Source: an uncultured Chloroflexia bacterium
GTDB taxonomy: Bacteria; Chloroflexota; Limnocylindria; Limnocylindrales; CSP1-4
DNA: 64,000 bases
Direction: 5' to 3'
Assembly: GCA_963746845.1 (NCBI GenBank)
Contig: CAVVCZ010000006.1
Coordinates: 32,001-96,000 of the forward strand
In this document: positions 9,234-47,202 of the stretch, in pieces
How the letters are laid out: each line of letters begins with the position of its first letter
Position numbering within the stretch: position 1 is the stretch's first letter
Made by a program: the position numbers and the translations under genes
Notes under the pieces: generated by a model
Told to the model about the DNA's origin: nothing
Databases searched by the model: none
What the model saw: the letters and a program-made list of their open reading frames with translations, nothing else

Positions 9234-9235
9234 CT

Positions 9236-12182: not shown

Positions 12183-12188
12183 ACCAAG

Positions 12189-13699: not shown

Positions 13700-13758
13700 T
13701 GCAGAAAGCGACGGAAAACGACAATGCGCCAGAAAATATTGTTGCATTGAATGAGGGT

Positions 13759-15288: not shown

Positions 15289-15289
15289 C

Positions 15290-16060
15290 CGCCAACAGAT
15301 ATCTGCTCACGATTGGAAAAATTTATCGGCGGCGTCGATATGGACCCAATGGCCGGTGTTGGCGGACGACCAGGCCATTCGGGAAGCGCTCGCGGATTTC
15401 CGGAATGTTTGTCATGGGCAATGAAATTTGACCGGCCCGCTCGAATGAAGCAAGTTTGGCTAGAGACGGCGCCATCGGCGCTGAACGCTTCAGTAAGCGC
15501 ATCATAATTTGCGATAATCTCTTCCAAGCCGATGCGCCAATGGAATCATGCATCCGTACCGCAGGCGAGATTGGCAATCAAGAACTGGCGTAGCGTCGGT
15601 TCCGGAATGTTTCCTGTGTGCGCCCGGTCGGCGTCGCTGGAGGTCTACCCGCTTGCGAGCGTAAGCGCCTCTAGGCGGCAGCGGGCTTATGCGCGGCGGG
15701 CTTCGGGCGCGATGTCGACTACGACTAGCCCATTGATGGAACTGGCGTTGACCGCGGCGCATTGCCGGGCCACCTTGCCGACCATGGAGTGGCCGCATAG
15801 ATGGGCACGATCGAGTTCTCGCGGCAAAAAATTCTCTCACATCCTTCGCCATGGCGCATGATGCGTCACCGGATGATGCGCTGAGGCGCCGTGATTTCTC
15901 AAATCTAAATCATAGACTTTGAAGTAGACAGCGAGCCGCTTGACGATGGCGCGCCAATTGTCGGTCGCGCCGAGAAAGCCTGCAGGGTGATCCTCGGGAC
16001 ACCGATCCCTTGGACTTGGAAGTTGAGACGGATGGTTCTGGTTGTGGCGGGCGGCCGACG
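15290..16060 (-). pseudogene. Decayed YbfF-like alpha/beta hydrolase (esterase)
   Basis: Colinear fragments in different frames: GFLGATDNW, DLRNHG, MAKDV, GHSMVGKVA, VVVDIAP, FIRAGRSNFI, GHWVHIDA. Confidence 0.75.
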
Positions 16061-16214
16061 AAACTCTGCCAAGATCGGGAGCAAGGAAGCGCCGCGAGGC
16101 GCTCAAGTTCGAAGAGAGTTGCGAAGGAATCGTTGAGGCGGGGGGTTAACAACGCGCTGGCGATCGCAAAGGAGAGTAGCGCTAGTATGTCGGTTGCCGT
16201 GAAACGAGCCGTGA

Positions 16215-17837: not shown

Positions 17838-18099
17838 GCCACTTGACGCAAGGCTAGTTACCTAGAGACAAGCAAGGTAGTTCCGGAGATCATTCGATAC
17901 TTTGCCAGACAGTTTTCCGGGTATTCCGGCTGAACAGAGCTGCACAAATCGGTGAATCGTTACGAAAACTGTTTAGCTATGTCTGCGTTGCCCGCGGCAG
18001 CAGCGCTGGTTCCGAGGAAAAAAACTCGCATCGTCTGGCAGATCGCTGGCGCTATGAGCGTCGTTGGGCTAAGAAAAATTACCCCAAGATGTCCTTCCA

Positions 18100-19005: not shown

Positions 19006-19219
19006 TGAAGAGGTCGAGCGGGCGGCCTCCGAGACGGGCGATCAAGTCGTCGATGACCGGCTCGAAGACGGCGTCGACACCACCTGCCTTGCTCAGCGCA
19101 TTGCCGAAGTCGAACAGGATCGTCCGTTCGATCGGCTGGCCGTTCTCGGTATCCGGGATCGAGACAAGGATCGCGTCGCCGAAGCGCACGTCGTAGGCCC
19201 GGACGATCAGCTCGCTCAT
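19005..19219 (-). CDS. ComEC-like MBL-fold hydrolase, N-terminal fragment cut at the junction
   Basis: VRAYDVRFGDAILVS..ILFDFG..RPLDL; ends just before the expected HxHxDH; ATGA overlap with the upstream peptidase. Confidence 0.75.
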
Positions 19220-20982
19220 TCGTCCAGGTCCGATACGACGTGGAGGAGCCGGGCCGTCTGCTTGACCCGGAGGATCCCGCTCGTGGCGACGGCGTCGATG
19301 CCGGACGCGGTTCGTTCGCCGTGAGCCCGGACCTCGGGCTCGGTGATCTCGACGATCCCCCGGCCGACGAGGTCGTCCAGCATCGCGTCGCGGGCGGCCC
19401 GGCGCCCCGCGAAGTCGAGCGGCCGCTGGAGCGCCCGGATCCGCTTCGCATTCGAGTCGATGACGAGGGTGGTGCCGGTCTGGACCCGGCGCCGCGGCGG
19501 ATCGAAGCCGCGTGGGTTGTCCTCGACCTGGCTCCAGCGGACCTTGAACAGCAGCTCACGGAACGGCGTTCCCGCCTCCTCGGCGGCGGCGGCATCGGCC
19601 GGCGGCTCGTCGTCGTCGTCGGGGGCGCCGGCGGCGGCCGCGGGCGGCGCCGGGGCCTGGCCGGCATGTGCTGCCGTCTCGTCGGGGCTCTGGACCCGAC
19701 CATCGACCACGACGCGCTTCAGCACCTCGAACTCCGCGTCATCGGGGATCTCGAGCAGGTCGCGATTGACGTCCGCGAACTTGTACGCGACCCAGTCGCT
19801 GTCCGCGAGTCCCTGGAGGTCCGCGGCGGCGACTGCCGGGTGGTCGATGTTCACCCTGACGTCGAGGGCTGACGCGTCGGCGACGATCCGGCGCGCGACG
19901 AACTTCGTCCGGAGTTTCTGGCCCCACTGCCGATCCCCCGGTGACGCCTCGTCGGCCGCGAGGATCGCCCGCCCGAAGTCCGCGAACGTGACCTCGCCCG
20001 GCGGCAGGTAGTCGAGTCCTCGGAGGACCATCCGTCGGAAGAGGCCTGCCGCGACGGCAAGCGCGAGTCCGGACGCCTTGAACCGGTCGCCACCGAACCG
20101 GCCCGCGTACTCGTCCTTGAAGGACTCGTGCATCTCGACGATCAGCTCGTACAGGACGCCGCTGATCACCTCGCTCAGCGCGTGCGGCTCGATCTCCTCG
20201 TTCTTCGGATCGATCTTCGCGTCGTTCTTCAGGTTCCGGAGATAGCCGGGCCTCCGCCCGCCGGCGATCGCGTCGCCGAACTGCTCGCCGATCGAGCTGA
20301 ACGCGTTCGACTTGTCGATCCGGCCGCCCGTCGCGTCGAGGATCGCGTGGGTCAGGCGACTGCTGTCGAACGCGATCAGCATCGCGGTCAAGTCGGCGAT
20401 CCCCTCGTGGAGCGCGAGCCCCTGTGGGTCGAGGGCGTCGTAGAGGTCCGGATCGATCCCGTCGATCAGGGCATGGGCCGTCTCGTGGGAGACGATGTCC
20501 CGCGAGAGGCTCGTGTAGATGGTCTTGCCGTCGGCATCGAACGAGAAGAACTGGAGGCTGTGCGAGGCTCGCTCGTAGTAGGCGTTCTCCATCCAGCCGG
20601 CGCGCGGGACGAGGAGGAGCTGCGGGGCATCGAACCCCCAATGGATCTCCCGGCCGAGGGTGCGCTTCTCCTCGAACAGCTTGATCGTCCGCCAGACGGT
20701 CGCGAACGCGCTGACCGCGATGAACGGCGGCGACTCGATATCGTCGCGATCGACGGTGTACCGGCCCAGCGTGCGCCCACCGGATGGCGGCTCGAACGGG
20801 ACCGGGTCGAGCAGGGTTTCGCTGTCGGGGTCGAGGTCGACGACGGCGAGCCGCGGCGTGATCGGGCCGGCGAGGAAGTGGTCCTGTTCCAGGCCCTTCC
20901 AGTCCTCGACCATCCGGCCCACCGCGGTCTCGGCGATCTCCGGGTCCTGGATCATCATCGGCAGCCGGGCGCGGGTCGCCAT
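19216..20982 (-). CDS. M4/M36-like gluzincin metallopeptidase without a signal peptide
   Basis: ENAYY, DIVSHETAHALIDG (HExxH), ALHEGIADL (third ligand), EPHALS. Confidence 0.85.
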   Translation of the reverse strand: MATRARLPMMIQDPEIAETAVGRMVEDWKGLEQDHFLAGPITPRLAVVDLDPDSETLLDPVPFEPPSGGRTLGRYTVDRDDIESPPFIAVSAFATVWRTIKLFEEKRTLGREIHWGFDAPQLLLVPRAGWMENAYYERASHSLQFFSFDADGKTIYTSLSRDIVSHETAHALIDGIDPDLYDALDPQGLALHEGIADLTAMLIAFDSSRLTHAILDATGGRIDKSNAFSSIGEQFGDAIAGGRRPGYLRNLKNDAKIDPKNEEIEPHALSEVISGVLYELIVEMHESFKDEYAGRFGGDRFKASGLALAVAAGLFRRMVLRGLDYLPPGEVTFADFGRAILAADEASPGDRQWGQKLRTKFVARRIVADASALDVRVNIDHPAVAAADLQGLADSDWVAYKFADVNRDLLEIPDDAEFEVLKRVVVDGRVQSPDETAAHAGQAPAPPAAAAGAPDDDDEPPADAAAAEEAGTPFRELLFKVRWSQVEDNPRGFDPPRRRVQTGTTLVIDSNAKRIRALQRPLDFAGRRAARDAMLDDLVGRGIVEITEPEVRAHGERTASGIDAVATSGILRVKQTARLLHVVSDLDE

Positions 20983-20986
20983 CGTG

Positions 20987-21925
20987 TCAGCCCGCAGCCG
21001 CAGCGATGGCCTGGGCGATCAGCGGGATCTTCAGGTAGCCCGTCAGTTCGTGGTTGTTCCGGGCCTGGTTGTTGACCGACTCGTCATGCGCGAAGTTCGG
21101 CGGCGGCGTGAACTCGTCACGCAGCGTGTGCTCGAGCGCGACCGGGTCGAACGGATCCGAGTAGTTCGACCAGGCGCCGATCTGCGGGGGAACCGGGTTG
21201 GGTCGACCGGCGCTGTCGCGGATCAGCTTCTGGACGTTGCCGATCCCCAGGGGGCAGCCGACCGTGAACAGGATGTCGACCTTGAGGCCAGCGAGGTCCG
21301 GCTGGTTGAGGACGTCGTAGGTGATGATCGTGCCGAGGCTGTGGGCGACGACGACCTTCGGCGCCGGGCTCGCGAGGAGCGCCTTGCGCACCGGCTCGCG
21401 CATCGCCTGCTTGAACGGCCCGTACAGGTAGTCGAGCACGTCGCTGGCGAACTTCCCGACGACGAACCGGAAGATCGGGTCGGGGAACGTGACGTTCAAC
21501 GCGGTGCCGCGACGGGGCGGCCGCGGCGAGCGATCCGCGATCCGGTCGGCCTCCCGGAAGAGCTCCTCGACCAGCGCGGTCGCGCTGTCCCGGTCCTTGG
21601 CGGAGATCGTGGTCGCGGCCGCCCCTCGACCGCCTCCGGCGGATGGCGCCAGCGTCGCGGCGACGATCCGGGAGGCCGCGACATCGGCACTGAGGTCGGG
21701 CGCCATGGCCGCACGGATGGCCCGCGTGCGTCGCTGCTTGTTCGCGCCAGCTGCCGCGGCCGCCCCACCGCCCGACGCGGCCGGCCACCGGACGTTCGCG
21801 TAGTAGCCGACACGCGTGGATGGCATGTCCCGGCCGAAGATCAGCGTGTCGGCGTCGCGCTTGAACTCCTTGACCGGCGCCTGTGGCCCGGCGCCGTGGA
21901 CGTAGACGAGCGGCAAAGGCGGCAC
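20987..21925 (-). CDS. Alpha/beta-hydrolase (lipase-like)
   Basis: GTG start with GGAGG RBS; VYVHG, VVAHSLG, FTVGCPLG, DPFDPVA, NNHELTGYL. Confidence 0.85.
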   Translation of the reverse strand: MPPLPLVYVHGAGPQAPVKEFKRDADTLIFGRDMPSTRVGYYANVRWPAASGGGAAAAAGANKQRRTRAIRAAMAPDLSADVAASRIVAATLAPSAGGGRGAAATTISAKDRDSATALVEELFREADRIADRSPRPPRRGTALNVTFPDPIFRFVVGKFASDVLDYLYGPFKQAMREPVRKALLASPAPKVVVAHSLGTIITYDVLNQPDLAGLKVDILFTVGCPLGIGNVQKLIRDSAGRPNPVPPQIGAWSNYSDPFDPVALEHTLRDEFTPPPNFAHDESVNNQARNNHELTGYLKIPLIAQAIAAAAG

Positions 21926-22028
21926 CGGGGAACCTCCGAGCTTCGTTGGATGCGTCGGGCACTCGCCCCTCGATCGCACGCCGACGCTATCGGACCACCG
22001 TCGCGCCGGCGTCGTGCGCCGCGCTCGA

Positions 22029-25000
22029 CTACGCCAGGAGCGCGTCCGCCTCCGCGAGATCGGGCGTCGAAGCGCCCTCGGTGATGCCGGCGCGGACCGC
22101 CCGGAGGGCGTCCAGCCGGCCCCGACGGTCCGGCTCCGGTGCGACCTGGCAGCGTCGGACGGCAGCCCGAAGCTGCGGCATCCGCGCCCCGAAGCGCTCC
22201 GCCATCGCGAACGCATGCTCGTACGACGCCATCGCGGCCGCGACATCGGGGTCCGGCCCCACGAGCAACAGGTCGCCGCGGACGACGTGGAAGAGCGGCG
22301 CGATCGGGTTGGTCGGTCCGCCCAGGTCGATCGCCTCGCCGATCAGCGGCAACCCCTGGCCGGGCAGGCCCGCCTCGACGTGCGCCCCTCCCTGGATGAA
22401 CCGAAGAAACGGCCAGAAGATCGGCGGCGTTCGGAGATCCTGATACTGGTCGAGGCCGTCCGCGATCTGGTGGAGACCCTCCGTCGGCCGGCCGAGCGCG
22501 CTCGTTGCCGCGCCGAGCAGGCACGTCCCGAGCGCACGCCAGATCGGCAGGTCACTCGCCTCGGCGACTCGCAGCGCCGCGGTTGCGCGCGCCGCGACGA
22601 GGTCCGGCTCGCGGCGCCACAGATGCAGGAACCCGGAGTGGAACAGCCCGTACGCCAGCGAGTACGGGTGGTCGAGCTCGGTCGCGACCACGATCGAGCG
22701 GTCGGCCCGTTCGACGGCCCGATCGGGGTGGCCCAGGAGCCAGAGGAAGAACCCCGACGTCGTCAGGCACGACACCCGCACGTCCAGCCCGAGCCGGTAC
22801 CGCCGGGGCCGGTAGGCGGGGCTCTCGAACCCCCCGATCGCCTGGTCGAGGTACCGCAGACCTCCCTCGAGATCGCCGGCGAACCCGGTGTCGGCGCCGA
22901 GGATGAAGTTGCCGTCGACCCGCATGCTCGGGTCGTTCTCGGCATCGGCCAGCTGCAGGATCTGATTCGCGTACCCGATGCCCTTGTCGACCTCCCCGCG
23001 GAACCCATGGAAGCTCGCGAGGCTGCGCAGGACCGGGAAGAGCAGCGGGACGTCGGGGTGGTCCTGGAGCAGTGCCAGCGCCTCGACGTAGGCGTCCTCG
23101 GCCTCGCCGGTGTAGCCGCGCAGCAGCGTGAGCGCCCGGGCGAGGCTCGTCCGGAGCGTCAGCTCCTCCTGCCAGTGATCGGACCGGTCGGGCATCGCCG
23201 TCAGGACGCCGAGCATGTCGCGGATCGCTTCGACGGTCGCGTGGTACCAGCCTCGTCCGTCGTAGAAGGGCCACATCGCGCCCTTGAGCTCTTTCAGTCC
23301 ATCGAGATCGCGCTCCGCCACCCGGTGGCCCCACGCGATCCGGAGGTTGTCGATCTCGAGCGCCACGGCATCGCTGGAACCGGCACGCTCGGCGTCGCCG
23401 GTCGTTCGGGCGATGTCTGTCGCGTACTGCACGAAGAAGCGTGCGTGGTGGTCTCGCGCCGAGGTGGCGAACGCGGGGCGCGCATCGAGCCGCTCCGCCG
23501 CGTACTCGCGGATCGTCTCGAGCATGACGATCCGCGGCTCGCCGTCGGTGGCGGTCGTGTCGGCCTGCCGGACAAGGCTCTTGTCCAGCAGGGAGCCGAG
23601 ACCTTCGAGCGCGTTGAGCTCGACACCGGCGTCCTCGTCGAGCCCGGCCGCCACCGCCTCCACCGCTTCGACCGACGCGCCGGCAAAGACCGACAGCAGC
23701 TCGAGCAGCCGTTGCTCGGCCGGCTCCAGGAGCAGGTAGCTCCACTCGATCGTCGCCCGGAGCGTCTGCTGCCGTTCCGGGAGGTCGCGCGCTCCGCCGG
23801 CCAGCATCTTCAGCCGGCTTCCGAGCCGGTCGCGGAGCGCCTCGGGCGAGAAGAGGTTCAGCCGGGCGGTGGCGAGCTCGATCGCGAGCGGCAGCCCGTC
23901 GAGCCGGCGGCAGATCTCGAGGACGGCGGCCGCGTTGTCGTCGGTGAGATGGAAGTCGGACCGGACGGCCCGTGCCCGCTCGACGAAGAGCTGGATCGCC
24001 TCGAACTGCGTGAGCTCCGCCGCCGTCGTCGCGTGGCCCGCCGCGGCCGGGAGCGACAGCGGCGGCACGGACACGACGTTCTCCCCCCGCACCCGGAGGG
24101 CCTGGCGGCTCGTGACGAGCAGCTTCAGGCCGGGACAGTCGGCGAGGAGGTCGATGAGGACGGGCGCCGCGACGGCGACCTGCTCGAAGTTGTCCAGGAC
24201 GAGCAGCACACGCTGGGAGCGCAGCTGGCGGCGGAGCTCGTCGAGCGGCGCGCGATTGGTCGTGTCGGCGAGACCAACGGCGACCGCGACGAGGGCGACG
24301 ACGCCGTCCGCGTCGCTCGCGGTGACGAGGTTCACGAAGAAGACGCCGTCGGTGAACCGGTCGATCTGGTCGGCGGCTGCCCGGAGGGCGAGGCGGGTCT
24401 TGCCCGTCCCGCCGGGTCCCGTCAGGGTGACGAGCCGGACGCCGGCGTCATCGAGGCGCTCGCGGATGACGCGCAGCTCGGCGTCGCGACCGATGAACGC
24501 CGACGACTCCGTCGGCAGGTTGTTCGGCCGGCGATCGAGCGTGGCGAGCGGCGGGAACTCGGCGGGCAGGTCCGGATGGGTCAGCTGGAAGAGGCGCTCG
24601 GGCCGGCCGAGATCCTTCAACCGATGCTCGCCGAGATCTCGAAGCGCGACGCTTCCCGGAAGGTCACCGTCGAGGAGCGCGGCGGCCGAGCCCGACAGCA
24701 GGACCTGGCCGCCGTGACCGACCGCCATGATCCGCGCGGTCCGGTTGACGGCCGGACCGAAGAAGTCCCCGCCTCGCGACTCCGCCTCGCCGGTGTGGAT
24801 CCCCATCCGGACGCGGATCGGGCAGGAGCTCGGCCACGTCTCCGCGAACAACGCCCCCTGGGCGGCGATCGCCGCCGTCACGGCACCGATCGGGGCGTCG
24901 AACACGGCCATCAGGCCGTCGCCGGTCGTCTTGACGACGTCGCCGTTCGAGCCCTCGATCGCTGACCGGATCAGGACCTCGTGCCGGGCCAGTGCGGCCT

Positions 25001-25145
25001 GCATCTCGCGCGGGTTCTGCTCCCAGAGACGCGTGCTGCCCTCGACGTCGGTGAAGAGGAAGGTCCGCGGCGCATCGCGGAGCGACGCGGACGACGGCTC
25101 CTCGACGACCTGACCCGAGGTCGATCCGCTCGGTGGTGAGACCAA
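22029..25145 (-). CDS. Class III adenylate/guanylate cyclase + STAND (NB-ARC-like) ATPase + TPR-like protein
   Basis: TFLFTDVEGST, GDG, VRMGIHTG, AVNRTAR; GPGGTGKT; LLVLDNFE; LDGLPLAIELA; helical C-terminus; start estimated at TTG 25145. Confidence 0.9.
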   Translation of the reverse strand: MVSPPSGSTSGQVVEEPSSASLRDAPRTFLFTDVEGSTRLWEQNPREMQAALARHEVLIRSAIEGSNGDVVKTTGDGLMAVFDAPIGAVTAAIAAQGALFAETWPSSCPIRVRMGIHTGEAESRGGDFFGPAVNRTARIMAVGHGGQVLLSGSAAALLDGDLPGSVALRDLGEHRLKDLGRPERLFQLTHPDLPAEFPPLATLDRRPNNLPTESSAFIGRDAELRVIRERLDDAGVRLVTLTGPGGTGKTRLALRAAADQIDRFTDGVFFVNLVTASDADGVVALVAVAVGLADTTNRAPLDELRRQLRSQRVLLVLDNFEQVAVAAPVLIDLLADCPGLKLLVTSRQALRVRGENVVSVPPLSLPAAAGHATTAAELTQFEAIQLFVERARAVRSDFHLTDDNAAAVLEICRRLDGLPLAIELATARLNLFSPEALRDRLGSRLKMLAGGARDLPERQQTLRATIEWSYLLLEPAEQRLLELLSVFAGASVEAVEAVAAGLDEDAGVELNALEGLGSLLDKSLVRQADTTATDGEPRIVMLETIREYAAERLDARPAFATSARDHHARFFVQYATDIARTTGDAERAGSSDAVALEIDNLRIAWGHRVAERDLDGLKELKGAMWPFYDGRGWYHATVEAIRDMLGVLTAMPDRSDHWQEELTLRTSLARALTLLRGYTGEAEDAYVEALALLQDHPDVPLLFPVLRSLASFHGFRGEVDKGIGYANQILQLADAENDPSMRVDGNFILGADTGFAGDLEGGLRYLDQAIGGFESPAYRPRRYRLGLDVRVSCLTTSGFFLWLLGHPDRAVERADRSIVVATELDHPYSLAYGLFHSGFLHLWRREPDLVAARATAALRVAEASDLPIWRALGTCLLGAATSALGRPTEGLHQIADGLDQYQDLRTPPIFWPFLRFIQGGAHVEAGLPGQGLPLIGEAIDLGGPTNPIAPLFHVVRGDLLLVGPDPDVAAAMASYEHAFAMAERFGARMPQLRAAVRRCQVAPEPDRRGRLDALRAVRAGITEGASTPDLAEADALLA

Positions 25146-25299
25146 CGCCGCTCCAATCTCCAGCCTGACTCGACCAGGTGATCGTGACACGGGCAGCGCC
25201 GACTCGTCCGAAAGCCGCGACGAACGTCCACCGGAACACCTTCGGCAGTGGGCGTGAGGGCTCCGAACATGCAGCCTCGATGCCCGGGTGGGCGAGGCG

Positions 25300-26433
25300 T
25301 CACCCTCCGAAGAACGCGCGGACGCTACTGACGAGTATCCCGACCACACCGGCGACCAGCGGCGCAGCGACCGCAGCCCAGGCGGTCCGCAGCGCGGTTG
25401 TGTGGATCGGCCAGGCCGGATAGGTCAGGGTGATCTCGGCGGCGCGTCGATCCAGCTCGACCAGGAGATCCGTACCTTCCTTCAGCCTTCTCGTGATCAC
25501 AGCGGGCGTCTGGCTCGTGACGATCGTCGCCCGAGCGACGCGATCGTAAACAGCGCCAACTTCACCCAGCACCGTCCCGCGCGCCGTCAGCATCGCCTCA
25601 TGCGGAAAGTGCAGCCAGAACCAGAGGACGAGCGGGGCCACCACGAGGAGAGCGCCGACGCCGAATACGGATTCCATCGAGGCCAGCAGGTTGTTGCCCT
25701 GCTGAAGCGACAACACGTTGATGAATAGCACAGCGGACCCCGCCGCGGCGCCGGCCCAGGCCAGGATCGTGACGCGCCGGCCGATCGGGCCGAATCCTCC
25801 GGCGCCGTCCGGGTGGTACGGGTAGACCCGGATCCGATACCGATCGAACAACTCGGTCGTCACTCGAATTCCCGCGACCATCCGGAAGAACGACAGCGTT
25901 GCGGCGTAGATCACCGGTGCGGCGACGAGGAGATCGAGGATGAGTTGGACGGTCGCTGCCGTACTGCCCGGCGGCAGGTTGCGGAACTTGACGATCGAGT
26001 AGAGGGCGATCAGGTAGATGCCGGGGACGAAAAACCACGCGTACTCGTATCGGTCTTTCGCGTTTGCCTCGAACTGATCGATCGAGACGGTCGTCCCCTC
26101 CTTGGGCCCCAGGATGACGCCGTTTGCCCGGAGCTCCGGGATCAGTGCAACGGATGAACCGGGCGACCAGAAGTACAGGTACATCGCGACCGGGACGGCG
26201 AGGAAAGCCCAGGCGGCCATCTGTTGGGAATCCGGGCTGGACAGAGGCGGGATCGATTGTCCGCTGAGGGTCAGCGCCGGCCGAAGCAGGCCGTTGACGG
26301 CGGTCAGGATTACCACCGACACGATCATGATCAGGGCCCGATCCGACACCTTTGTGCCGCGCGTCATGACCGTCGGACCCATCGCCCGAAGGAGAGGGTC
26401 GCCCGGCATCCGCTCAGTCGTGGCGCTGCTCAT
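25300..26433 (-). CDS. Multi-pass membrane protein
   Basis: Several TM segments; PYHPDGAGGFGPIG and YPAWP. Confidence 0.75.
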   Translation of the reverse strand: MSSATTERMPGDPLLRAMGPTVMTRGTKVSDRALIMIVSVVILTAVNGLLRPALTLSGQSIPPLSSPDSQQMAAWAFLAVPVAMYLYFWSPGSSVALIPELRANGVILGPKEGTTVSIDQFEANAKDRYEYAWFFVPGIYLIALYSIVKFRNLPPGSTAATVQLILDLLVAAPVIYAATLSFFRMVAGIRVTTELFDRYRIRVYPYHPDGAGGFGPIGRRVTILAWAGAAAGSAVLFINVLSLQQGNNLLASMESVFGVGALLVVAPLVLWFWLHFPHEAMLTARGTVLGEVGAVYDRVARATIVTSQTPAVITRRLKEGTDLLVELDRRAAEITLTYPAWPIHTTALRTAWAAVAAPLVAGVVGILVSSVRAFFGG

Positions 26434-26446
26434 CCGGGTGCTCCGT

Positions 26447-27580
26447 TCAGGGCTCCGGCCAGAGCAGCTGGTATGCCGAGGCCGACGAGACTGCAAGACC
26501 GAGGTCGTGCTCGAGATCGAGCAAGGTCTTCAGCGGCATCGTCGACGCGAGATGACACGACGCCGGGTTGCCTGCCTTCGCGCAGTAGACGACCTCAGGC
26601 TCGATGAATGACGCAGGGCGGGCTCCGCTCAACTGCTCGCTGAGCTCGCAGGGATCGACCGCGGTCGCATTGTCGCTGGCCGTCATCGGATCGCACGTTG
26701 CGCCCGAGCTCCGGAGATGGCCGACCATCGTCGCCGGTCGCCACTCGACGGCCAGACGCCGTTCGTCCGGGAACATCGATCCGAGAACCGGCGTGCGGTT
26801 CTCGACCCGCCAGTAGGTCCAATAGATCGGGCGCACCGTCAGGTCGCCCTCGAGGTCCGGGCGGCAGCCGGCTGCGCTGTCGCCCGCCAACTCCCCAGCC
26901 GTCCAGTTCGTCGGCTCGTCATCGGTCTGGATTACATCACCCTTCGCGACCCACAGGTCGACGGAGAACATGGCCACGTCGGCCTCGGACGGACGTGCGA
27001 ACAAGATGACCCGCTCGTCGGTCTCCTGGCCGGCGTCGAGCCAGCTGCCATCGAGCATCCGACCGGTCGCGAGCATCGTCCAGGAGTCGGCCGCTGCCTC
27101 GAGGTACCGGCCGCCAAACGGCGTCGAGCAGAACCCTTGTTCCTTCGGGAGCGCCGCGTCGAACTCGGCGCCGTTTCGTTGCACGAGCCTCGCGCCCCAC
27201 AGGTTGTACTGGGCGGCGAGCACGGTCACCCGGCGGCTACCGGCGTTCTTGACGTGGACGACGGCCTCGAACTGTCGCAAGTCGCCGAGGCCCTCGGACT
27301 CGGGAACCGGCTTCGGGTCTCCGAGCTGGACTGACACGGACAGGTCCGCGGGCAGCGTCGATGGGACGTACGCAGACTGGTGCCACAGGGCGAAGCCGGA
27401 CAGACTGACACCGATGACCGCGACGACGGCGCTGAGCTGAAACGCGCGCAACCACGGAACACGTGCTCGCCAGCCAGTCGACGGCGGCTGATGGATGACG
27501 ACATGGACTCGTTGATCACCATCACCCGCGGGCCCGGCCACCGCGGGGGGTCCTGACGGCGGCGGCAGTTGATCGGTCAC
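26447..27580 (-). CDS. Membrane-anchored hypothetical protein
   Basis: One N-terminal TM, Cys-containing distal part; GGAGGG RBS. Confidence 0.65.
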   Translation of the reverse strand: MTDQLPPPSGPPAVAGPAGDGDQRVHVVIHQPPSTGWRARVPWLRAFQLSAVVAVIGVSLSGFALWHQSAYVPSTLPADLSVSVQLGDPKPVPESEGLGDLRQFEAVVHVKNAGSRRVTVLAAQYNLWGARLVQRNGAEFDAALPKEQGFCSTPFGGRYLEAAADSWTMLATGRMLDGSWLDAGQETDERVILFARPSEADVAMFSVDLWVAKGDVIQTDDEPTNWTAGELAGDSAAGCRPDLEGDLTVRPIYWTYWRVENRTPVLGSMFPDERRLAVEWRPATMVGHLRSSGATCDPMTASDNATAVDPCELSEQLSGARPASFIEPEVVYCAKAGNPASCHLASTMPLKTLLDLEHDLGLAVSSASAYQLLWPEP

Positions 27581-40005: not shown

Positions 40006-41079
40006 TCAGGATCGGAGGCGCCGCGCGTTGAGCAGGCCGATCAGGACGATCGCTCCGGCCAGCATCATGCTCAGGGCCACGACCGGCAGCCATGCAGGGA
40101 ACACCATCTGCGCCACCGTGGCGTCCGACAACGGCATGGCGGCGGGGTCGTTCGACGGAGAGACGGCCGGCGCCGCGAGGGCGGCAAGCGGCACGGTCGA
40201 CTGGGAGCCGCTCCCGGCGGGATCAAGCGAGTCGACGCTCGAGGAGGCGGTCGGCGACTCGCTCGGCAGTGGGGTCGGCGTCGGCTTCGGCGTCGGGCGG
40301 GGCGTGGGTCGCGGGGTCGCCGTCGCCACCGGCTTCGGCTCGGCCTTGGCGGCGGGGCCGGATGCGATCGGCTGGACCGACACCCAGCGGCCTTCCCAGG
40401 CCATCCGGACGCCTGCGTAGTGCCACGGAGTGAAGAACCCGCGCAGCTGGCTCGGCGTCAGCTTGCGATCCGGCGTCATGTCATACCCGTAGCTCCGGCT
40501 CTGGAGACCCCAGAGTGGTCCGGTGACCCGGACGCTCGTCACGGTGAAGCGGCTGGTCGTCGCGGGATCCGCGGTGGCGCTGAACCCGGTCAGGACCCAC
40601 GCGTGGTTGCCGTGGGACACGGTGATCGCCACCGGCAGGTTGGTCTTCCGGAGGTTCGTGACCGCCGCGCGGAGCGCCGCGTCGAAGCTGGTGCTGGCGA
40701 CCAGGCGATAGCGCTTGTCGACGAAGTGCTGGAGCCCTGCGGTCCAGCCGGCCGGATCGACCCCGTCGGACACCGGGATCCGGTAGCGGTTGTGCTTGCG
40801 CATGTAGTCGAAGTACCGGCCCTGGCTTGCGCCGTTGTGGTCCGACCGGCGGTCGACGATGTTGCGGATGATCTGGACGTCGGCCGCGGTGCACCAGAGC
40901 CAGGTCGCCTGGGTCGTGAAGACGCCGTTCCGGTACAGATCGATGCCACCCGTCCAGCGCGACAGGGCACTGGCCGACGGCGCCGACGGTGACGCGGCGA
41001 AGATCGCGAACGACAGGGCAGCGAAGGTGGCCGCGAGGCCCCGAAGGGCGTGCCGGCGGCGGCGCGTAGGGCCGGCCAT
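40006..41079 (-). CDS. Secreted, C-terminally anchored protein with papain/C39-like Cys-His motifs
   Basis: Signal peptide; QATWLWCTAA, NHAWVLTG; Pro/Thr linker; C-terminal TM. Confidence 0.65.
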   Translation of the reverse strand: MAGPTRRRRHALRGLAATFAALSFAIFAASPSAPSASALSRWTGGIDLYRNGVFTTQATWLWCTAADVQIIRNIVDRRSDHNGASQGRYFDYMRKHNRYRIPVSDGVDPAGWTAGLQHFVDKRYRLVASTSFDAALRAAVTNLRKTNLPVAITVSHGNHAWVLTGFSATADPATTSRFTVTSVRVTGPLWGLQSRSYGYDMTPDRKLTPSQLRGFFTPWHYAGVRMAWEGRWVSVQPIASGPAAKAEPKPVATATPRPTPRPTPKPTPTPLPSESPTASSSVDSLDPAGSGSQSTVPLAALAAPAVSPSNDPAAMPLSDATVAQMVFPAWLPVVALSMMLAGAIVLIGLLNARRLRS

Positions 41080-41141: not shown

Positions 41142-42275
41142 CTACTCGAGCTCGATCGACAGCAACAGCGCCGGAGCCGGCCGGACGTCGACCTCGTAGT
41201 TGCGACGATGAGCGTCCCGGTCGGCCTTGAGGACCGCGTCGATCCGGGCGTCCGGGTTCGTGAAGTGGATCGCGTACTCGGCGGCGCCGCGCGCCGCCAC
41301 GAGACGCTCGATCGTCGCCGGGTCGGGGTTGCCGTCCTTCCCGTTCGCCGAGAAGACGTAGTGATCGGCGGTGATCTGCTCGAGGAGATGCGCGGGCTTC
41401 AGGACGTTCCGGATCGAGCCGTGATGCGGCATCTTCAGGATGTCGACGTGGATCGCGCCGTCCTTCAGCCGTCCCGCGACGTCTAGGTCCGCGAGGATGT
41501 CCGCGCCCAGCCCGTCGCCGGTCAGCAGCATCGTCCGGCCCTTCCGCTCGGCGAGGATGATGATGCTGCTCAGGTTGTAGACGGACCGGTCGACCGCCAG
41601 CGCGGCGGTCGCGACGTCCTTCTTCGGGGCCTTGGCGGCCTGCGCGGCGAGGAACGCATCCCAGGCCGCTCGCAGGTCGTCGATCCGCTTCTGGTGCGGC
41701 CCGATGACGGTCAGCGTGAGGTCGCCGTCAAGGTCGACCACGACCGGCCCGCCGACCGTCGCCATCGCCATGCCCGACGGGAAGTCCGCGTTCTCCGCGA
41801 CCTTCAGGACCTTCGCGACGCCGGACAGGTCGCGGGCCTGCGGGATCGTGGCGATCACGGCCTCCGATTCGGGGCCGACGTCCATGCCGACCGCCTCCCC
41901 GACCGACGCGACCGCGGCCGTCAGCGCGGCCGGCCCGTCGACCCCGAGGGCCGCCAGGTCGAACGCATTGAGCCACAGCCCGCCGACGTCGAACGGGGCG
42001 GCCATCTGCGACGCCGCGTCGTCCTCGAGCTCGGAGAACAAGTCGACGATCCCCGTGATGTGATCGGAGTCCATGTGGCTGACGATCACCCGCTCGAGCC
42101 GGAGCGGCTCCCCGTCGTCCAGCGCGGCGCCGAGCTGGACCAATCGCGGCCGGACGCTGCGCGGGTAGATCCCGGTTGGCCCGGCATCCAGGAGGATCTG
42201 CCGGCCCGGAGTGGCGCCGAACCGGACCAGCAGCGCGTCGCCGAAGTCCGCCTGGAGCGCCTCGAGGGTGAACAT
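41142..42275 (-). CDS. ComEC-like MBL-fold metallohydrolase
   Basis: FGDALLV, LLDAG, SHMDSDHITG, NLSSII, LLTGD, KMPHHGS. Confidence 0.9.
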   Translation of the reverse strand: MFTLEALQADFGDALLVRFGATPGRQILLDAGPTGIYPRSVRPRLVQLGAALDDGEPLRLERVIVSHMDSDHITGIVDLFSELEDDAASQMAAPFDVGGLWLNAFDLAALGVDGPAALTAAVASVGEAVGMDVGPESEAVIATIPQARDLSGVAKVLKVAENADFPSGMAMATVGGPVVVDLDGDLTLTVIGPHQKRIDDLRAAWDAFLAAQAAKAPKKDVATAALAVDRSVYNLSSIIILAERKGRTMLLTGDGLGADILADLDVAGRLKDGAIHVDILKMPHHGSIRNVLKPAHLLEQITADHYVFSANGKDGNPDPATIERLVAARGAAEYAIHFTNPDARIDAVLKADRDAHRRNYEVDVRPAPALLLSIELE

Positions 42276-42284
42276 CGGCCCGCC

Positions 42285-45200
42285 TCAGATCGACTGCATC
42301 GCGCGAAGCACGTCGACGAGACCGTGCCCCTGGAAGTAGCTCTCGCGACCGAGGTCGCTGGCGGTCGAGGTCAGGATCACCTTGATCCGTGACGGGTCAC
42401 CGATCAGCTCGTGGTACCGGGCCATCAGCAGGGCCGCACAGCCGCTGACGTGCGGCGCCGCCATGCTCGTCCCGTCGAGGAACCGGACCCCGCCCTCGGG
42501 GACCGACGACCAGATCTTCTCGCCCGGGGCGACGAGATCGGGCTTCGAGCGTCCGTCGCCCGTCGGCCCCCGACTGGAGAAGTAGCTCACGCCGTAGGCG
42601 TACGGCCGGTAGCCGTGTGTCGCCCCGACGGTGATCGCCGCCTCGGCGTTGCCGGGGTCGGTGATGCTCACCGTCCGGTAGCCGCCGTCGGCGTCGCCGC
42701 CGCCCGTGCCGGCGCGCGCTCGCAGGTACCCGTCGTTGCCCGCGGCCGCGACCACCACGACACCGGAGTTCACGAGCTTCGTGACGTCCTCGCAGACGGG
42801 CGTGCGCCCGCACGCGTAGTTCGCCACGTCGTGGCGGATCGAGAAGCTCATGTTCACGCCCTGGACCGTCAGGTCCTCGCGTTCGCTCGTCAGGCCCTGC
42901 AGGAACTCGATCGCCGCGAGGACGGCGAACTCGGTTCCGCCACCGCTCTCGTCGAAGACGCGGAGGTCGTACAGCTCGAGGGTCGGGCAGACGCCGATGA
43001 GGTCGTAGCTCGGCGGACCGAGCCCGTCCACCTTCTCGTCCGTCCGGCGCCAGTCGCCGGCCAGGATCCCCGCGACGTGCGTTCCGTGCTCGTTGGCGGG
43101 CGCCCGGTAGCCCTGCTTGACGACCTTGCCGGCGGCGTCCAGCTCGTCGGCCGCGTGGCGGATCCGCAGGAGATCGGCGAAGCGGGTCCATCGGATCGGC
43201 TTGCCGGCCCTCAGCGTGGTCAGCATCTCCCCCGCGAGCTCCCCGTTGGCGCGGACGCGCTCCGCGAGCGCCTGGTCGTCCATGAGGTCGAGGTTCTCGA
43301 GCCGTCGCGGATCCGTGAGCTCGCGGACGCCGCTGAAGTCATAGGTCTCGACGATCCGCGTGTTGTTGAGCGGCTTGCCGTCGTTGATCCCGAAGGCCAC
43401 CGCCTCGTGGTCGCCCACTGGCTTGCCCGTGCTCGGCGGCTTGCGCCGCCGAAACGCCGGATGCGTCGCATCGATGCCGCTGTCGACGACCGCCCAGGCG
43501 AGACCCTTGAAGTCGACCGGGAACAGGCCCCGGGCCGCATCGGCCTTCACCGTCGGGACGGACCGGTAGACGCTGACGTCCGCGTCGCGATTGAGGCTGA
43601 CCGTGAAGATCAGCTCCTTCTGGGTGGCGTTCGGGACGATCAGCCGGGCGACCGCGTCGACCAGCCGCCGGGCCCGAGCCATCTGGTCCTTGCCCTCGCG
43701 CAGCTCCGCGACGTCCGCCTTCGACGCGCCTTCGCGGACCAGCTGAATCCGGCCGACGAGGCGGACCCCCCACAGCACCGTTGACGGGACCGCCGGCCCG
43801 GTGTGCGGACCTTCCAGACCCGTCTCGAACTGGATGAGCTGGGCGGCCAGGTCATCGAGGCCCGCCTCGTCGCGGCCCGGGATGTCGAGCCACGTCCGCA
43901 CGACGGACCGCGACTCGATCCGCCACGCGCACAGCGGGAGCAGGTAGGCGACGAGCTCGCCGAAGTCGAGGCAGGCCGCGGTCGTGGACTGTGTGTACGC
44001 GAGTCGTGCCTCCGACGACACGCCTGCGGCGTTCAGGAGCCGGACGATCTCGCCGGGTGGGTTGGTGTCCCGCTCGGCTCGGTTCGGCGTGAGCAGCAGG
44101 TCGATCCGCTCGTTCGGCCGGTTGCCGTAGGCGAACCAGACGTCGGGCAGGATCGGCGAGTCCTGCGTGTAGCGGCGCAGGGACGACGAGTGGAAGATCA
44201 GGTCCTCGATCGCGCGCCGGCCGATCTTCGTGGTCTTCGGTCCGTCGCCGCCGGAGTCGCCGCCGGCGCCACCGACGCCGTCATCGCCCCGATTGCCTCC
44301 CCCGCCGCCACCGCTGGCGCCGCCGGCCCCGCCGCCTCCGCCTCGCCGGGGCGGCGGCCCGGGCGATCGCCTCGGCGCCGAGGCGGCCGCCACGGAGCGG
44401 GTCGGCCCCGCGGGTGCCGGGCCCGCCCCATCCGGGGGCTCGCCGGTCAGCCAGCCGAGCAGGGCGCGGCTCGTCTTCGCCTGGCCGAAGTAGTTGGCGT
44501 GCTCGACGCCGTCGTCCTTGCCGAAGAAGCACGGCTCGAGAACCGGGAACGGCGGCTCGAGGGTCCGCCCCTCGATGCTCTCGATGGCGACCATCCCGTC
44601 GTTCGCCCCGTGGAAGACGACGTCGTCCTTCAGCCCGTCGACGAAGAACGCCTTCAGGTCCGGATCGTCGGGCTCGTAATCCGAGTCGATCACGCGATAC
44701 GTCGTTCCCACCGGGACCCGGACGTTGTCGTTCAGCTTGTGGAGGAACGGCCGCGGCGGCGACATCGCATCGAGGCCGGCGAGGTCATGGGCCGTGTCGA
44801 CCGCGATCGCGCGGATCAGCCCGAAGATCGATTCGAGGACGTCGACCGCCGCCGGCAGCGGCGCGAACGACAGCAGCGTCGAGAGGCGGTCGATCATCTG
44901 GTTCCAGCGGTCGACGTTGGCCAGGTCCGTGCCGTTGGTCGTCGCCCCGACCAGGATCGCGGTGCCGACCGTCAGGTTCGGGCCGAGCGGCGCGAGGTCC
45001 TCCGGCCGCTCGACGATCGAGCGAGAGACGAGGCCGCCGCGCGAGTGGCAGACGAGATCGATCTCCAGCTTGTGAGAGCCGACGGCCTTGAAGAACTCGC
45101 GGGCGTTGTCGATCGGCGAGTCGGCGATCGTCGGATGGTCGAACGCGATCACTCGGCCCTCGTAGCGCTTGTGCAGCTCCTGGAGCGTGACGTCGGGCAG

Positions 45201-45908
45201 GCGCGCGAAGCAGCCCGTGATCGTGTCGAAGGTCCCGTGGATGAACAGCAGGCTCCGCCCGCCCTCGAGCCGCTTCCAGTCCGCGTCCTTGAGCGGCGAC
45301 AGCGACTTGTCCGGACCGTAGGCGCGGAGGACCGTCGGGTGGTGCTCGTGGTCCCACTTCCGGATCTCGAACTCGGCGACCTTGCCGGCGACGGCCGCGA
45401 CCGGGAACGTCACGACCTGGAGGATCTTCGAGATCCCGAAGCCGCGGCGGACCGGGCCCGACGGCACCCGCTCGATCTCGAACAGGTCGCTGCCGGCCGG
45501 CGTGAAGGTATCGTCCCGCTTCGGCGTCAGCGGGAAGTGCCAGGTCGTGATCCCGTGCTCGTCGCGCGAGAGGATCACCTGCGCCCGGTTCTTCGGCGGC
45601 TTCCTGACGGCGATGCGGATCCGCTCCGGTCGCCCCGCCGGCGCCGCGCCGCCCCGCCGGACCTCCCGGCTGACGGGGGTCACGTCGCTCGGCGAGTCGA
45701 TCCGGATCGTCGTCCGTGCCCGCATCGACTGTCGGCCCATCGCCCGCTGGAACGCGTCCGGAACCGGCGCCGCGAGATCGCGCGCCCCGCGCTTCGGCGC
45801 CGCGCCACGGCCCGGCTCGACCACGAGGTCGCCGGCAAGACCCGGCGCCGAGATCAGGATCCCGTCGACCTCGACGGGAGCGTCGCCCGTCAGCGACCGT
45901 CCGGCCAT
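42285..45908 (-). CDS. Alpha/beta-hydrolase + S8 subtilase fusion
   Basis: FIHGTF, CHSRGG; Gly-rich linker; VVDSGID, HGTHVAG, AAAGN, GTSMAAPHVSG; GGAGGAG RBS. Confidence 0.9.
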   Translation of the reverse strand: MAGRSLTGDAPVEVDGILISAPGLAGDLVVEPGRGAAPKRGARDLAAPVPDAFQRAMGRQSMRARTTIRIDSPSDVTPVSREVRRGGAAPAGRPERIRIAVRKPPKNRAQVILSRDEHGITTWHFPLTPKRDDTFTPAGSDLFEIERVPSGPVRRGFGISKILQVVTFPVAAVAGKVAEFEIRKWDHEHHPTVLRAYGPDKSLSPLKDADWKRLEGGRSLLFIHGTFDTITGCFARLPDVTLQELHKRYEGRVIAFDHPTIADSPIDNAREFFKAVGSHKLEIDLVCHSRGGLVSRSIVERPEDLAPLGPNLTVGTAILVGATTNGTDLANVDRWNQMIDRLSTLLSFAPLPAAVDVLESIFGLIRAIAVDTAHDLAGLDAMSPPRPFLHKLNDNVRVPVGTTYRVIDSDYEPDDPDLKAFFVDGLKDDVVFHGANDGMVAIESIEGRTLEPPFPVLEPCFFGKDDGVEHANYFGQAKTSRALLGWLTGEPPDGAGPAPAGPTRSVAAASAPRRSPGPPPRRGGGGGAGGASGGGGGGNRGDDGVGGAGGDSGGDGPKTTKIGRRAIEDLIFHSSSLRRYTQDSPILPDVWFAYGNRPNERIDLLLTPNRAERDTNPPGEIVRLLNAAGVSSEARLAYTQSTTAACLDFGELVAYLLPLCAWRIESRSVVRTWLDIPGRDEAGLDDLAAQLIQFETGLEGPHTGPAVPSTVLWGVRLVGRIQLVREGASKADVAELREGKDQMARARRLVDAVARLIVPNATQKELIFTVSLNRDADVSVYRSVPTVKADAARGLFPVDFKGLAWAVVDSGIDATHPAFRRRKPPSTGKPVGDHEAVAFGINDGKPLNNTRIVETYDFSGVRELTDPRRLENLDLMDDQALAERVRANGELAGEMLTTLRAGKPIRWTRFADLLRIRHAADELDAAGKVVKQGYRAPANEHGTHVAGILAGDWRRTDEKVDGLGPPSYDLIGVCPTLELYDLRVFDESGGGTEFAVLAAIEFLQGLTSEREDLTVQGVNMSFSIRHDVANYACGRTPVCEDVTKLVNSGVVVVAAAGNDGYLRARAGTGGGDADGGYRTVSITDPGNAEAAITVGATHGYRPYAYGVSYFSSRGPTGDGRSKPDLVAPGEKIWSSVPEGGVRFLDGTSMAAPHVSGCAALLMARYHELIGDPSRIKVILTSTASDLGRESYFQGHGLVDVLRAMQSI

Positions 45909-45972
45909 CGTCTCCTCCGTTCCGACCATCGGCGGTCGCGCTGATGCTGGATCACGCGGGCGTCCGGTCCCG

Positions 45973-47202
45973 CTACGACAGGAAGGTCGACAGGTAGTCG
46001 GCCCAGTGCGTGTTCAGGTCGAAGTCGAGCTTCCGGTAGGTCTCCTCCGTGTCGGCATAGGCCCCCTTGTCCGACGGGAACCAGAACGCGAGACCGGTCG
46101 CGTCCCGGACCTTCGGTCCGAGGGCCGCACTCCGGATCCGGGCCTTGTCGAGCGACGCGACCAGGGCCGTGGCCGCAGGCGCCGCCTCCGGGAGCTCCTT
46201 CACGATCCGTCCGGCGAAGTCCTTCAGGTCGTACGTGTCGCGCTGGGCGAAGCCCTGCGTCTCCATCCGGATGAAGCTCAGGTTCCGGAAGCCGTCGTCG
46301 CCGAGGGGCTTCACCGCGTCCAGGAGCTCCGCGAAGCGGGCCGCGATCGTGTTCTTCGATCGGTAGGCGGCGAGGGTGCACGGGAACTGGTCCGGGCGGC
46401 TCGCGTACGACGCGTCGAACGCGTCGACCGCCATCCGGCCCCACGCGGCCGCGGTGCTCGGCGGCTTCTTCGTCATCGCCCCGAACAGGCGCTGGTAGTC
46501 CCAGCCGTCGCCCGGCTCGAGGTCCTCGGACCCGACGACGACCTGGGCGAACGGCTCGAGCTCGTCGAGGACCTCGACCATGCCGTTCAGGCACGTGTCC
46601 GAGAAGATCATGTCGAGCTTCCGTGTCTGGCCCGCCCGCTTGAACCCGGCCCGCAGGACGCCCGCGGCCTCGACGTTCGTCAGGACGCCCCCGCTCGTGT
46701 TGTCGTGGAGCATCGCCCGGACCTCGGCCTGGGCCGCCCTGTGGCGCGGGATGAACAGGCGCCGCGCGGGGATGGACCGGTTGCCGGCCTGCGGCGCGGC
46801 CTTCTGGAGCGCGGCCTCGAGGACCACCTGCTTCGGGTCGTCCTCGTCGAAGACCCCGGTGCCGTGATCCCAGAACCCCAGGGCGCGATGGGGAACCTTG
46901 TCATAGGTGATGAGCGCCCGGGCGAGGAAGGTGGCGAGCGTGTCCGGATCGCCCGTGTCGATCTCCCCGACCTTCTCGATGACCCGCTTGCCTTTGGTCG
47001 GCGAGATCTCGACGACCTGACCGCCGGCGCCCGCGAAGTCCGCGAGGCCGATGACGGCGAACCGGCCCTTGTTCCCCGCAGCCATCTCCTTGAGGTCCAG
47101 ATCGACGAAGTCGCTGAGGTTGTTGTCGCCACCGAAGAGCTCGATCACGACATGGCTGACGTCAATCGTCGAGACGGCGAACGGCTTGAGATCGGCGGCC
47201 AT
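45973..47202 (-). CDS. Clostripain-family (C11) cysteine peptidase without a signal peptide
   Basis: GDNNL, EIDTGDP, WDHGTG (His), FSDTCLNGMVEV (Cys), GSEDLEPGDGWDY. Confidence 0.9.
   Translation of the reverse strand: MAADLKPFAVSTIDVSHVVIELFGGDNNLSDFVDLDLKEMAAGNKGRFAVIGLADFAGAGGQVVEISPTKGKRVIEKVGEIDTGDPDTLATFLARALITYDKVPHRALGFWDHGTGVFDEDDPKQVVLEAALQKAAPQAGNRSIPARRLFIPRHRAAQAEVRAMLHDNTSGGVLTNVEAAGVLRAGFKRAGQTRKLDMIFSDTCLNGMVEVLDELEPFAQVVVGSEDLEPGDGWDYQRLFGAMTKKPPSTAAAWGRMAVDAFDASYASRPDQFPCTLAAYRSKNTIAARFAELLDAVKPLGDDGFRNLSFIRMETQGFAQRDTYDLKDFAGRIVKELPEAAPAATALVASLDKARIRSAALGPKVRDATGLAFWFPSDKGAYADTEETYRKLDFDLNTHWADYLSTFLS

Follow-up and report, generated by a model that had tools for sequence, protein, structure and literature searches.

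Introduction

Several described bacterial systems place the gene for a protease beside the gene for an effector that the protease controls. In the systems surveyed by Kaur et al. (PMC7159879), a caspase-superfamily domain is always accompanied by a neighboring alpha/beta-hydrolase gene. Evans et al. (bioRxiv 10.1101/2025.11.14.688446) recognize three clades among protease-associated metallo-beta-lactamase (MBL) proteins, one each for trypsin-like, caspase-like and S8 proteases, and report that an MBL zymogen with two cut sites yields a Zn-dependent double-stranded DNA nuclease. The same authors describe a Lysobacter alpha/beta-hydrolase (LcHydrolase) that a caspase-like protease (LcCaspase) cuts at two Arg|Gly bonds and that is toxic once cut. 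Tuck et al. (PMC12799240) report gated pro-nucleases in Hachiman and AVAST, together with a caspase-nuclease system, and compare the pro-nuclease with ComEC. Here, we analyze a three-gene operon in a 64,000-nucleotide stretch of contig CAVVCZ010000006.1 from an uncultured Chloroflexia bacterium (phylum Chloroflexota); we refer to the whole stretch as the window. The operon encodes a C11 cysteine peptidase, a DUF7379 alpha/beta-hydrolase fused to an S8 subtilase, and an MBL-fold protein.

The locus resembles the described systems in its parts and departs from them in how the parts are assembled. As in HamM of Hachiman, the MBL proteins of Avs1 and Avs2, CanC and the S8-associated clade 3, its MBL gene lies beside a protease gene, and as in clade 3 that protease is of the S8 family. 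The window MBL also matches the protease-associated pro-nucleases in having a ComEC-like fold and two variable insertions. In the characterized MBL examples, however, the proteases are trypsin-like or caspase-like and are fused to sensors of the signal-transducing NTPase (STAND), Hachiman, Lamassu or reverse-transcriptase type, whereas the window subtilase is fused to a second candidate zymogen effector and has no recognizable sensor; moreover, the MBL gene is downstream of the protease gene in the window and upstream in the characterized systems. A lipase-like alpha/beta-hydrolase beside a clan-CD peptidase is likewise shared with the LcCaspase–LcHydrolase module and with the pairing of Kaur et al., but the window peptidase is a C11 enzyme rather than a CHAT/caspase protein and its hydrolase is fused to a subtilase. 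Both hydrolases have Arg-Gly sites, those of the window lying ahead of the core.

From these comparisons and the evidence below we suggest, with confidence somewhat short of even, that the three genes make up a cytoplasmic conflict system (anti-phage, abortive-infection or cell-death) in which two protease-gated zymogen modules have been welded together. The first would consist of the clan-CD C11 peptidase and the lipase-like DUF7379 hydrolase, with Arg|Gly sites in the latter's N-terminal region; the second would consist of the S8 subtilase and an MBL pro-nuclease whose active site we propose to be masked by two insertions. An original prediction, made from the letters of the window, had stated that no described system has this architecture. 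That statement stands for the composite and fails for the two halves: the combination and fusion of the two modules is new within the reach of our searches, and each half is already in print.

Results

A C11 peptidase gene precedes a lipase-like hydrolase

The first gene of the operon (Table 1) encodes a protein that matches the Pfam family Peptidase_C11 (PF03415; E = 7.6e-28) and scores 98.5 bits where the cut-off is 25.8. Its catalytic dyad, His113 in a WDHG motif and Cys204 in an SDTC motif (residues counted from the ATG at 47202), is invariant across 17 aligned homologs, and the dyad and the Pfam match together place the protein in peptidase family C11. Clostripain and other C11 peptidases have the same match and the same dyad; the window enzyme differs from them in lying within a conflict-type operon and in being apparently cytoplasmic. 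In clostripain and PmC11, a cut in the region between the catalytic His and Cys brings about activation. The window protein has an Arg-rich insertion between these residues (positions ~118–165) that is shared by its C11 subfamily. Other C11 homologs of the phylum are ~25–32% identical to it, and none of 28 loci of such relatives had DUF7379, S8 or MBL within ~1.5 kb on either side.

The second gene begins with the hydrolase. DUF7379 (PF24096) matches residues 227–400 of the fusion protein with E = 3.4e-44 (residues counted from the opening of the open reading frame (ORF) at 45929), and the nucleophile, Ser296, lies within an HSRGG motif that is invariant in the family alignment. In a structure model of the N-terminal half, which had an overall predicted local distance difference test score (pLDDT) of 80.1, the hydrolase core was mostly above 90. 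The best Foldseek matches of the core were lipases, 6wpy_A (E = 1.2e-08), 4hs9, 6cl4 and 1ex9, with E-values from 1e-08 to 3e-07. The N-terminal 490 residues of the fusion are 41–60% identical to stand-alone DUF7379 proteins of 480–510 amino acids, and the beta-rich region ahead of the core is part of this stand-alone family (~490 amino acids). A weak DUF7362 match within that region (residues 81–147) was below the cut-off.

Arg-Gly dipeptides occur in the fusion at positions 41, 47, 92, 162, 529 and 547; the S8 half has two more, and another, at 297, belongs to the catalytic motif. The suspicion, already voiced in the original prediction, that these sites matter was borne out at the level of the family. 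Among 41 DUF7379 proteins, the region ahead of the core contained 209 Arg-Gly dipeptides versus 114 expected from composition (~1.8-fold); the core contained 71 versus 79 expected, with the nucleophile motif itself making up 41 of those observed. In the model, sites 41–48 and 92 are in low-pLDDT loops of the beta-rich domain and site 162 is in a loop between strands; the Arg-Arg-Gly at 161–163 is common to both species of the genus in which we found the cluster. We propose that the N-terminal region is an autoinhibitory part that would be removed by cleavage. A complex prediction for the C11 peptidase and fusion residues 1–520, both supplied as alignments, scored 0.14 against a mark of 0.32.

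The pairing of DUF7379 hydrolases with clan-CD peptidases is common. A DUF7379 scan of metagenome contigs returned 545 stretches, and we analyzed the best 80. Of the 52 loci whose upstream sequence extends for 1200 nucleotides or more, 41 have a CHAT-type protease gene immediately upstream in the same orientation, and 12 of the 28 with less have a partial one; no S8 or MBL gene was found in any of the 80. In two genomes of the phylum, too, the gene ahead of DUF7379 encodes a CHAT protein that also has a TCAD7 domain. The window shows the same kind of pair, an alpha/beta-hydrolase with a Ser nucleophile beside a clan-CD peptidase gene, and in a sister species the two are fused.

Close homologs of the window C11 peptidase (E-values from 1e-140 to 1e-153) were found at the head of operons in three soil-metagenome loci, L151 (1149–6459), L153 (2255–7563) and L196 (251–4981). 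In each, the C11 gene is followed by a gene for a protein of ~810 amino acids with CHAT and transglutaminase-like matches and then by DUF7379. These operons contain the closest relatives of the window C11 peptidase and hydrolase (41–60% identity) in the same order and on the same strand; they differ from the window in having the middle gene, which the window lacks, and in having no S8 or MBL gene. The hydrolase's closest relative (60% identity), at L149, lies behind a middle gene of that type, on a contig that ends before the C11 position. At L151, L153 and L196, two or three cysteine-protease folds precede a single hydrolase, and for this reason the operons are possibly protease relays in their own right.

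The subtilase and the MBL protein form a widespread pair

The C-terminal half of the fusion matches Peptidase_S8 (PF00082; E = 2.6e-41, residues 812–1203). Its catalytic residues are Asp816, His948, Asn1065 and Ser1155, with a triad that is invariant in 24 sequences and an insertion of ~100 amino acids between Asp and His. The C-terminal 645 residues have 43–47% BLASTP identity to stand-alone S8 proteins of ~670 amino acids, whose first residues align directly after the Gly-rich linker of the fusion. The N-terminal domain that these proteins share with the fusion matched no Pfam family, and the best score for it in an Atlas search (0.79) was unusable.

The third gene encodes a protein with a weak match to Lactamase_B in Pfam (E = 5.6e-08). 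Its metal-binding motifs, H67-x-D69-x-D71-H72, D254 and H284-H285, are invariant in 58 sequences. The AlphaFold model was of high quality (pLDDT 89.1; predicted TM-score (pTM) 0.90), and MBL folds topped the search of solved structures, led by the MBL domain of ComEC (9ic4; E = 5.1e-11, TM-score 0.69 on the target). The protein is accordingly an MBL fold with intact metal-binding motifs. The Ala/Gly-rich insertion noticed in the original prediction is real and is one of two variable segments: both are poorly conserved in the 58-sequence alignment, and the confidence of the model falls in the same two stretches, to below 50 at residues 226–232 of the second.

In PADLOC, whose use the original prediction had recommended, two of the four enzymatic parts matched models: the MBL protein matched the defense-associated MBL models LmuA (PDLC03854; E = 4.9e-41 over its full length), Avs1a (2.8e-26) and RTasMBL (4.2e-24), and the S8 part matched the model "subtilase" (PDLC03014; E = 2.2e-42). 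The locus as a whole is neither an AVAST type 1 nor a Lamassu system. AVAST type 1 (Avs1) has a STAND NTPase sensor fused to the protease or beside it; neither the three genes nor their direct neighbors encode one, only the MBL protein matches an Avs1 model, and the nearest STAND gene is 16 kb away. Lamassu requires LmuB (SMC-like) and LmuC; here only the MBL matches, to LmuA, and the neighboring genes encode a sigma factor, a DUF1697 protein, a secreted protein and a GH25 protein. In canu (CanABC), a caspase-family protease activates the neighboring MBL nuclease, and there is a CanB partner. The operon here does encode both a clan-CD peptidase and an MBL protein, but the relatives of the window MBL pair with S8 and not with cysteine proteases, and no CanB-like gene is evident at the locus.

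A scan with the S8 half, limited to one genome per species, returned at least 589 stretches, and we analyzed the best 80. In 74 of these loci an MBL homolog was encoded directly downstream on the same strand, so that the gene is adjacent to an S8 protease gene across lineages. Three of the other six loci stop at a contig edge (L009, L017 and L043) and three are truly without MBL (L029, L034 and L036). The last three, and L017, form an S8 subgroup in which the upstream gene encodes an amino-acid permease and MBL is missing downstream.

The genes around the S8-MBL pair are unrelated between lineages. Because the pairing is conserved while the upstream gene varies, we regard S8-MBL as a self-contained mobile pair. 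A gene for a patatin-like phospholipase directly precedes it in 12 of the 80 loci (12 of 64 upstream ORFs; L004, L006, L013, L019, L028, L035, L048, L051, L055, L063, L070 and L076). Among the 64 upstream ORFs, nSTAND1 with HEAT repeats, SIR2_2 and TIR_2 were each found once, and the others are unrelated genes. The pair sometimes recruits a third gene of lipase or sensor type, and the set of lipase, S8 and MBL is a recurrent three-gene arrangement. At L001, which has the closest pair to that of the window (59% and 55% identity), an upstream ORF of 848 amino acids (5409–7955) has weak MBL-like matches below Pfam cut-offs. No C11 gene was present in any of the 80 loci, and DUF7379 was present in one, L011, on the opposite strand and 3 kb away. 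The DUF7379-like stretch at L011 is part of a 1467-amino-acid ORF (1312–5715, minus strand), and this is the only other site showing both families together.

The hydrolase and the subtilase are joined in two species

Stand-alone hydrolase homologs end before the linker and stand-alone S8 homologs start after it. The linker has pLDDT values between 35 and 44 and is disordered at residues 502–560. The entire cluster recurs in another species of the genus (genome G285), where it occupies the corresponding chromosomal position between flanks that are syntenic on either side. Identity between the two species is 79% for the C11 peptidase, 71% for the N-terminal region, 85% for the hydrolase core, 70% for the S8 half and 62% for the MBL protein. 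In G285, the C11 peptidase, the hydrolase and the subtilase are encoded in a single frame of 1690 amino acids (L111, 7469–12541) that is followed by the MBL gene, unlike in the window, where a stop codon follows C11. The Arg-Arg-Gly at residues 528–530 of the linker is kept in G285 while the remaining linker diverges. Upstream of the cluster, G285 has ~2.1 kb of additional DNA that includes a 432-amino-acid ORF.

The original prediction had named an assembly indel artifact among the outcomes that would speak against it. We rejected an assembly artifact because the independent genome of the sister species keeps the join. Four soil-metagenome DNA runs, all from one study, matched with a small share (0.12–0.17); only short contigs from these runs (150–324 nucleotides, with 0–3 differences) map, all to the hydrolase part, and are uninformative on the join since none bridges the linker.

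We found no fusion beyond this genus. A search with the full fusion gave 1650 proteins of 667–2125 amino acids at E <= 0.001, and among the 120 matches listed only the window's own protein covers more than 54% of the query. When the S8 half was searched against proteins of 1148–3275 amino acids, again only the own protein was close, the next best having E = 2.5e-15. Both searches pick candidates by shared words, and the lack of other fusions is for that reason weak evidence. DUF7379 itself is patchy. Of 401 genomes sampled from the phylum, 16 had a match above the Pfam cut-off, and the domain was found in one of 23 other genomes sampled from the family and not in the remaining 22. Synteny at the cluster site was not kept in three genomes of other genera, and no empty insertion site can be defined as a result.

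Protein and Pfam family searches found no CHAT homolog in either genome of the genus, each ~92% complete, which leaves C11 as the only clan-CD peptidase on hand. The simplest history is that an operon of the order C11, CHAT/transglutaminase-like, DUF7379 lost its middle gene and then gained S8-MBL, with the subtilase becoming fused to the hydrolase.

It is unlikely, in our estimate, that the two modules remain independent, each with its own trigger (C11 acting on the hydrolase and S8 on the MBL protein), and that the fusion is simply a tolerated loss of a stop codon. Both modules do exist separately and widely, the fused form was found in a single genus, and the different C11 frames of the window and its sister indicate that joins at such boundaries come and go. 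The hydrolase-S8 join, however, is kept in both species despite 62–85% protein identity, the linker Arg-Arg-Gly is conserved within an otherwise divergent linker, and the CHAT partner was lost at the same time, which suggests rewiring over plain juxtaposition.

The loss of CHAT also allows a different wiring, whose probability we likewise put low, though we take both readings seriously. The subtilase could have replaced CHAT as the only executioner, opening the MBL protein as well as the hydrolase to which it is fused, the latter either in cis or from one copy to another, with C11 as the upstream initiator of the subtilase. The gene order in the relatives, C11, CHAT/transglutaminase-like, DUF7379, leaves C11 one step removed from the hydrolase, as this wiring would have it; the patatin-like genes before S8-MBL in 12 of 80 loci show that the S8 family has been coupled repeatedly to a lipase-type protein; and CHAT is missing from both genomes of the genus. 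Yet the hydrolase keeps its Arg-Gly sites and the Arg-Arg-Gly sites are conserved in two species, which better fits an Arg-directed clan-CD peptidase than a subtilase, given the specificities known for these enzymes. Any action of the S8 protease on patatin or DUF7379 is hypothetical.

Layout and surroundings of the locus

The coordinates of the three genes and their parts are collected in Table 1. Analysis of the start codons confirmed three co-oriented genes separated by 64 and 9 nucleotides, as originally described. Although the ORF of the fusion opens at 45929, the ATG at 45908 has a GGAGGAG Shine-Dalgarno sequence ahead of it, and homologs also begin there; similarity of the C11 peptidase to its ortholog in the sister species sets in just past the ATG at 47202. 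Third codon positions in each of the three frames had a G+C content of 0.90–0.95, which is the pattern of coding sequence in this genome of ~70% GC. All of the catalytic and metal-binding motifs listed in the original prediction are present and invariant in the C11, hydrolase, S8 and MBL family alignments. It had also seen no evident signal peptide, and the N-termini of the three proteins, judged by reading only, agree. On this reading of the N-termini we rejected a secreted protease set.

Table 1 Genes of the locus and parts of their products, with positions in the window.
Feature	Position	Strand	Details
C11 (clostripain-family, clan CD) cysteine peptidase	45973..47202	minus	409 aa, Pfam PF03415
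DUF7379 alpha/beta-hydrolase + S8 subtilase fusion	42285..45908	minus	1207 aa
N-terminal beta-rich region (residues 8-190)	45360..45908	minus	Arg-Gly at 41, 47, 92, 162
DUF7379 alpha/beta-hydrolase core, lipase-like (residues 200-497)	44439..45332	minus	Pfam PF24096, Ser296
Gly/Pro-rich disordered linker (residues 498-574)	44208..44438	minus	Arg-Arg-Gly at 528-530
S8-family N-terminal domain, candidate regulatory/sensing domain (residues 575-810)	43500..44207	minus	kept in stand-alone homologs
S8 subtilase catalytic domain (residues 811-1214, stop codon included)	42285..43499	minus	Pfam PF00082
MBL-fold protein, predicted gated pro-nuclease	41142..42275	minus	377 aa
MBL variable insertion 1, Ala/Gly-rich, candidate gating loop (residues ~101-145)	41841..41975	minus	pLDDT 54-73
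MBL variable insertion 2, candidate gating loop (residues ~205-235)	41571..41663	minus	pLDDT 50-80

One flank of the cluster encodes a DUF1697 protein, a sigma-70 factor, a tRNA-editing domain protein and a LiaF-like protein, and the other a secreted Cys/His protein with no Pfam family, a GH25-LysM muramidase, a cold-shock protein and a major facilitator superfamily (MFS) transporter. The GC content of the cluster is that of the genome. A role outside conflict, with the three genes serving intracellular proteolysis and nucleic-acid turnover in housekeeping, development or DNA uptake, strikes us as very improbable. It would accord with the housekeeping flanks, the GC content, the stability of the site in two species and the ComEC competence nuclease domain as best fold match of the MBL protein. 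Against it stand the patchy distribution of DUF7379 (1/23 genomes of the family and 16/401 of the phylum), the presence of S8-MBL beside unrelated genes in different lineages and the matches of the MBL protein to defense models; experiments on sister modules show defense. The patchy distribution and the defense-type MBL are what make this role unlikely.

The number of sites in a promoter and terminator scan was not above chance, Rfam gave no match within the window, and a search of sequencing runs found no RNA run that contains the locus.

Several other features of the window were recorded. The secreted protein of the flank (40006–41079, minus strand), which matched no Pfam family, has a signal peptide, a conserved Cys and a conserved His, as well as a Pro/Thr-rich linker, and is anchored to the membrane at its C-terminus; its own genome encodes five matches to it, and matches also occur in 22 of the 25 other genomes compared within the family. 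A STAND NTPase gene (22029–25349, minus strand) encodes a protein of 1106 amino acids that combines an adenylate/guanylate cyclase domain with an NB-ARC STAND NTPase, and is flanked by ORFs at 19216–22246 and 25300–27580 with no Pfam families. Positions 1–18000 have a GC content of 52–60%, versus ~70% in the remainder of the window, and include genes for amidohydrolases, an NMT1-like binding protein, MFS transporters and an RNase_H_2-superfamily protein. On this GC and gene content, the segment is probably acquired DNA.

Discussion

We most likely see, going by homology and genomic context, an operon in which each protease would gate the effector linked to it. That reading agrees with the original prediction, which had proposed protease-gated zymogen effectors for defense or cell death, and it fits both the pairings seen in other genomes and the logic of the two 2025 papers. 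To judge from the fusion and from the loss of CHAT, the modules now appear to be coupled, and from this we infer a cascade between two proteases in series.

Spelled out, such a cascade would have two tiers and be made largely as a polyprotein, with C11 as an initiator that arms the lipase-like effector and releases a subtilase executioner, which in turn opens a gated DNase. We hold this version tentatively and consider it doubtful as a whole. In the order of events that we prefer, with confidence a little below even, a trigger would activate the C11 peptidase, which would cut at Arg-Gly within the N-terminal region, arming the hydrolase. It would also cut the Arg-Arg-Gly of the linker and free the subtilase. 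The subtilase would then cut both insertions of the MBL protein and convert it to a DNase, and damage to membranes or esters together with degradation of DNA would stop the cell.

A number of observations weigh against a coupled conflict system of this kind. The usual partner of DUF7379 in its relatives is CHAT, with C11 one gene further upstream, and because of that position C11 may normally act on the CHAT protein and not on the hydrolase. Clostripain is Arg-specific, and the presumed Arg specificity of the window C11 peptidase is taken from it. The Arg-Gly clusters near window residues 48, 92, 113, 140 and 162 are each present in only 19–30 of 41 sequences, and site 92 is Arg-Asp in the sister species. 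No recognizable sensor domain was found in the three proteins by Pfam or by the Atlas search of the S8 N-terminal domain, and the direct neighbors are of housekeeping type with no defense island around the cluster. PADLOC, positive for the MBL and S8 parts, has no model matching the C11 peptidase or the hydrolase. LcHydrolase has ~300 amino acids, judging from the reported fragment sizes, versus ~490 for DUF7379 proteins. In the two 2025 papers, whose supplements may bear on the point, we found no S8-MBL experiment.

Those papers likewise contained, outside supplements that may bear on it, no hydrolase-S8 fusion and no C11 peptidase. A literature search for DUF7379 by name found nothing, one on anti-phage caspase protease cascades found no such system, judged by titles and abstracts, and others combining Lamassu or MBL-defense themes with hydrolase or subtilase found nothing relevant.

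Protease-gated effectors were experimentally established only in 2025, so far as single steps consisting of one sensor-linked protease and one zymogen. The locus described here physically couples two protease-effector pairs, and its sister species has three of the four enzymes as one polypeptide. It is an example of module exchange, with CHAT lost and S8-MBL gained at one site. If the cascade is real, one trigger would fire two different death effectors in sequence, and the operons of C11, CHAT/transglutaminase-like protein and hydrolase would be a second form of serial logic. Serial wiring of bacterial modules, like that of initiator and executioner caspases, becomes testable with three proteins.

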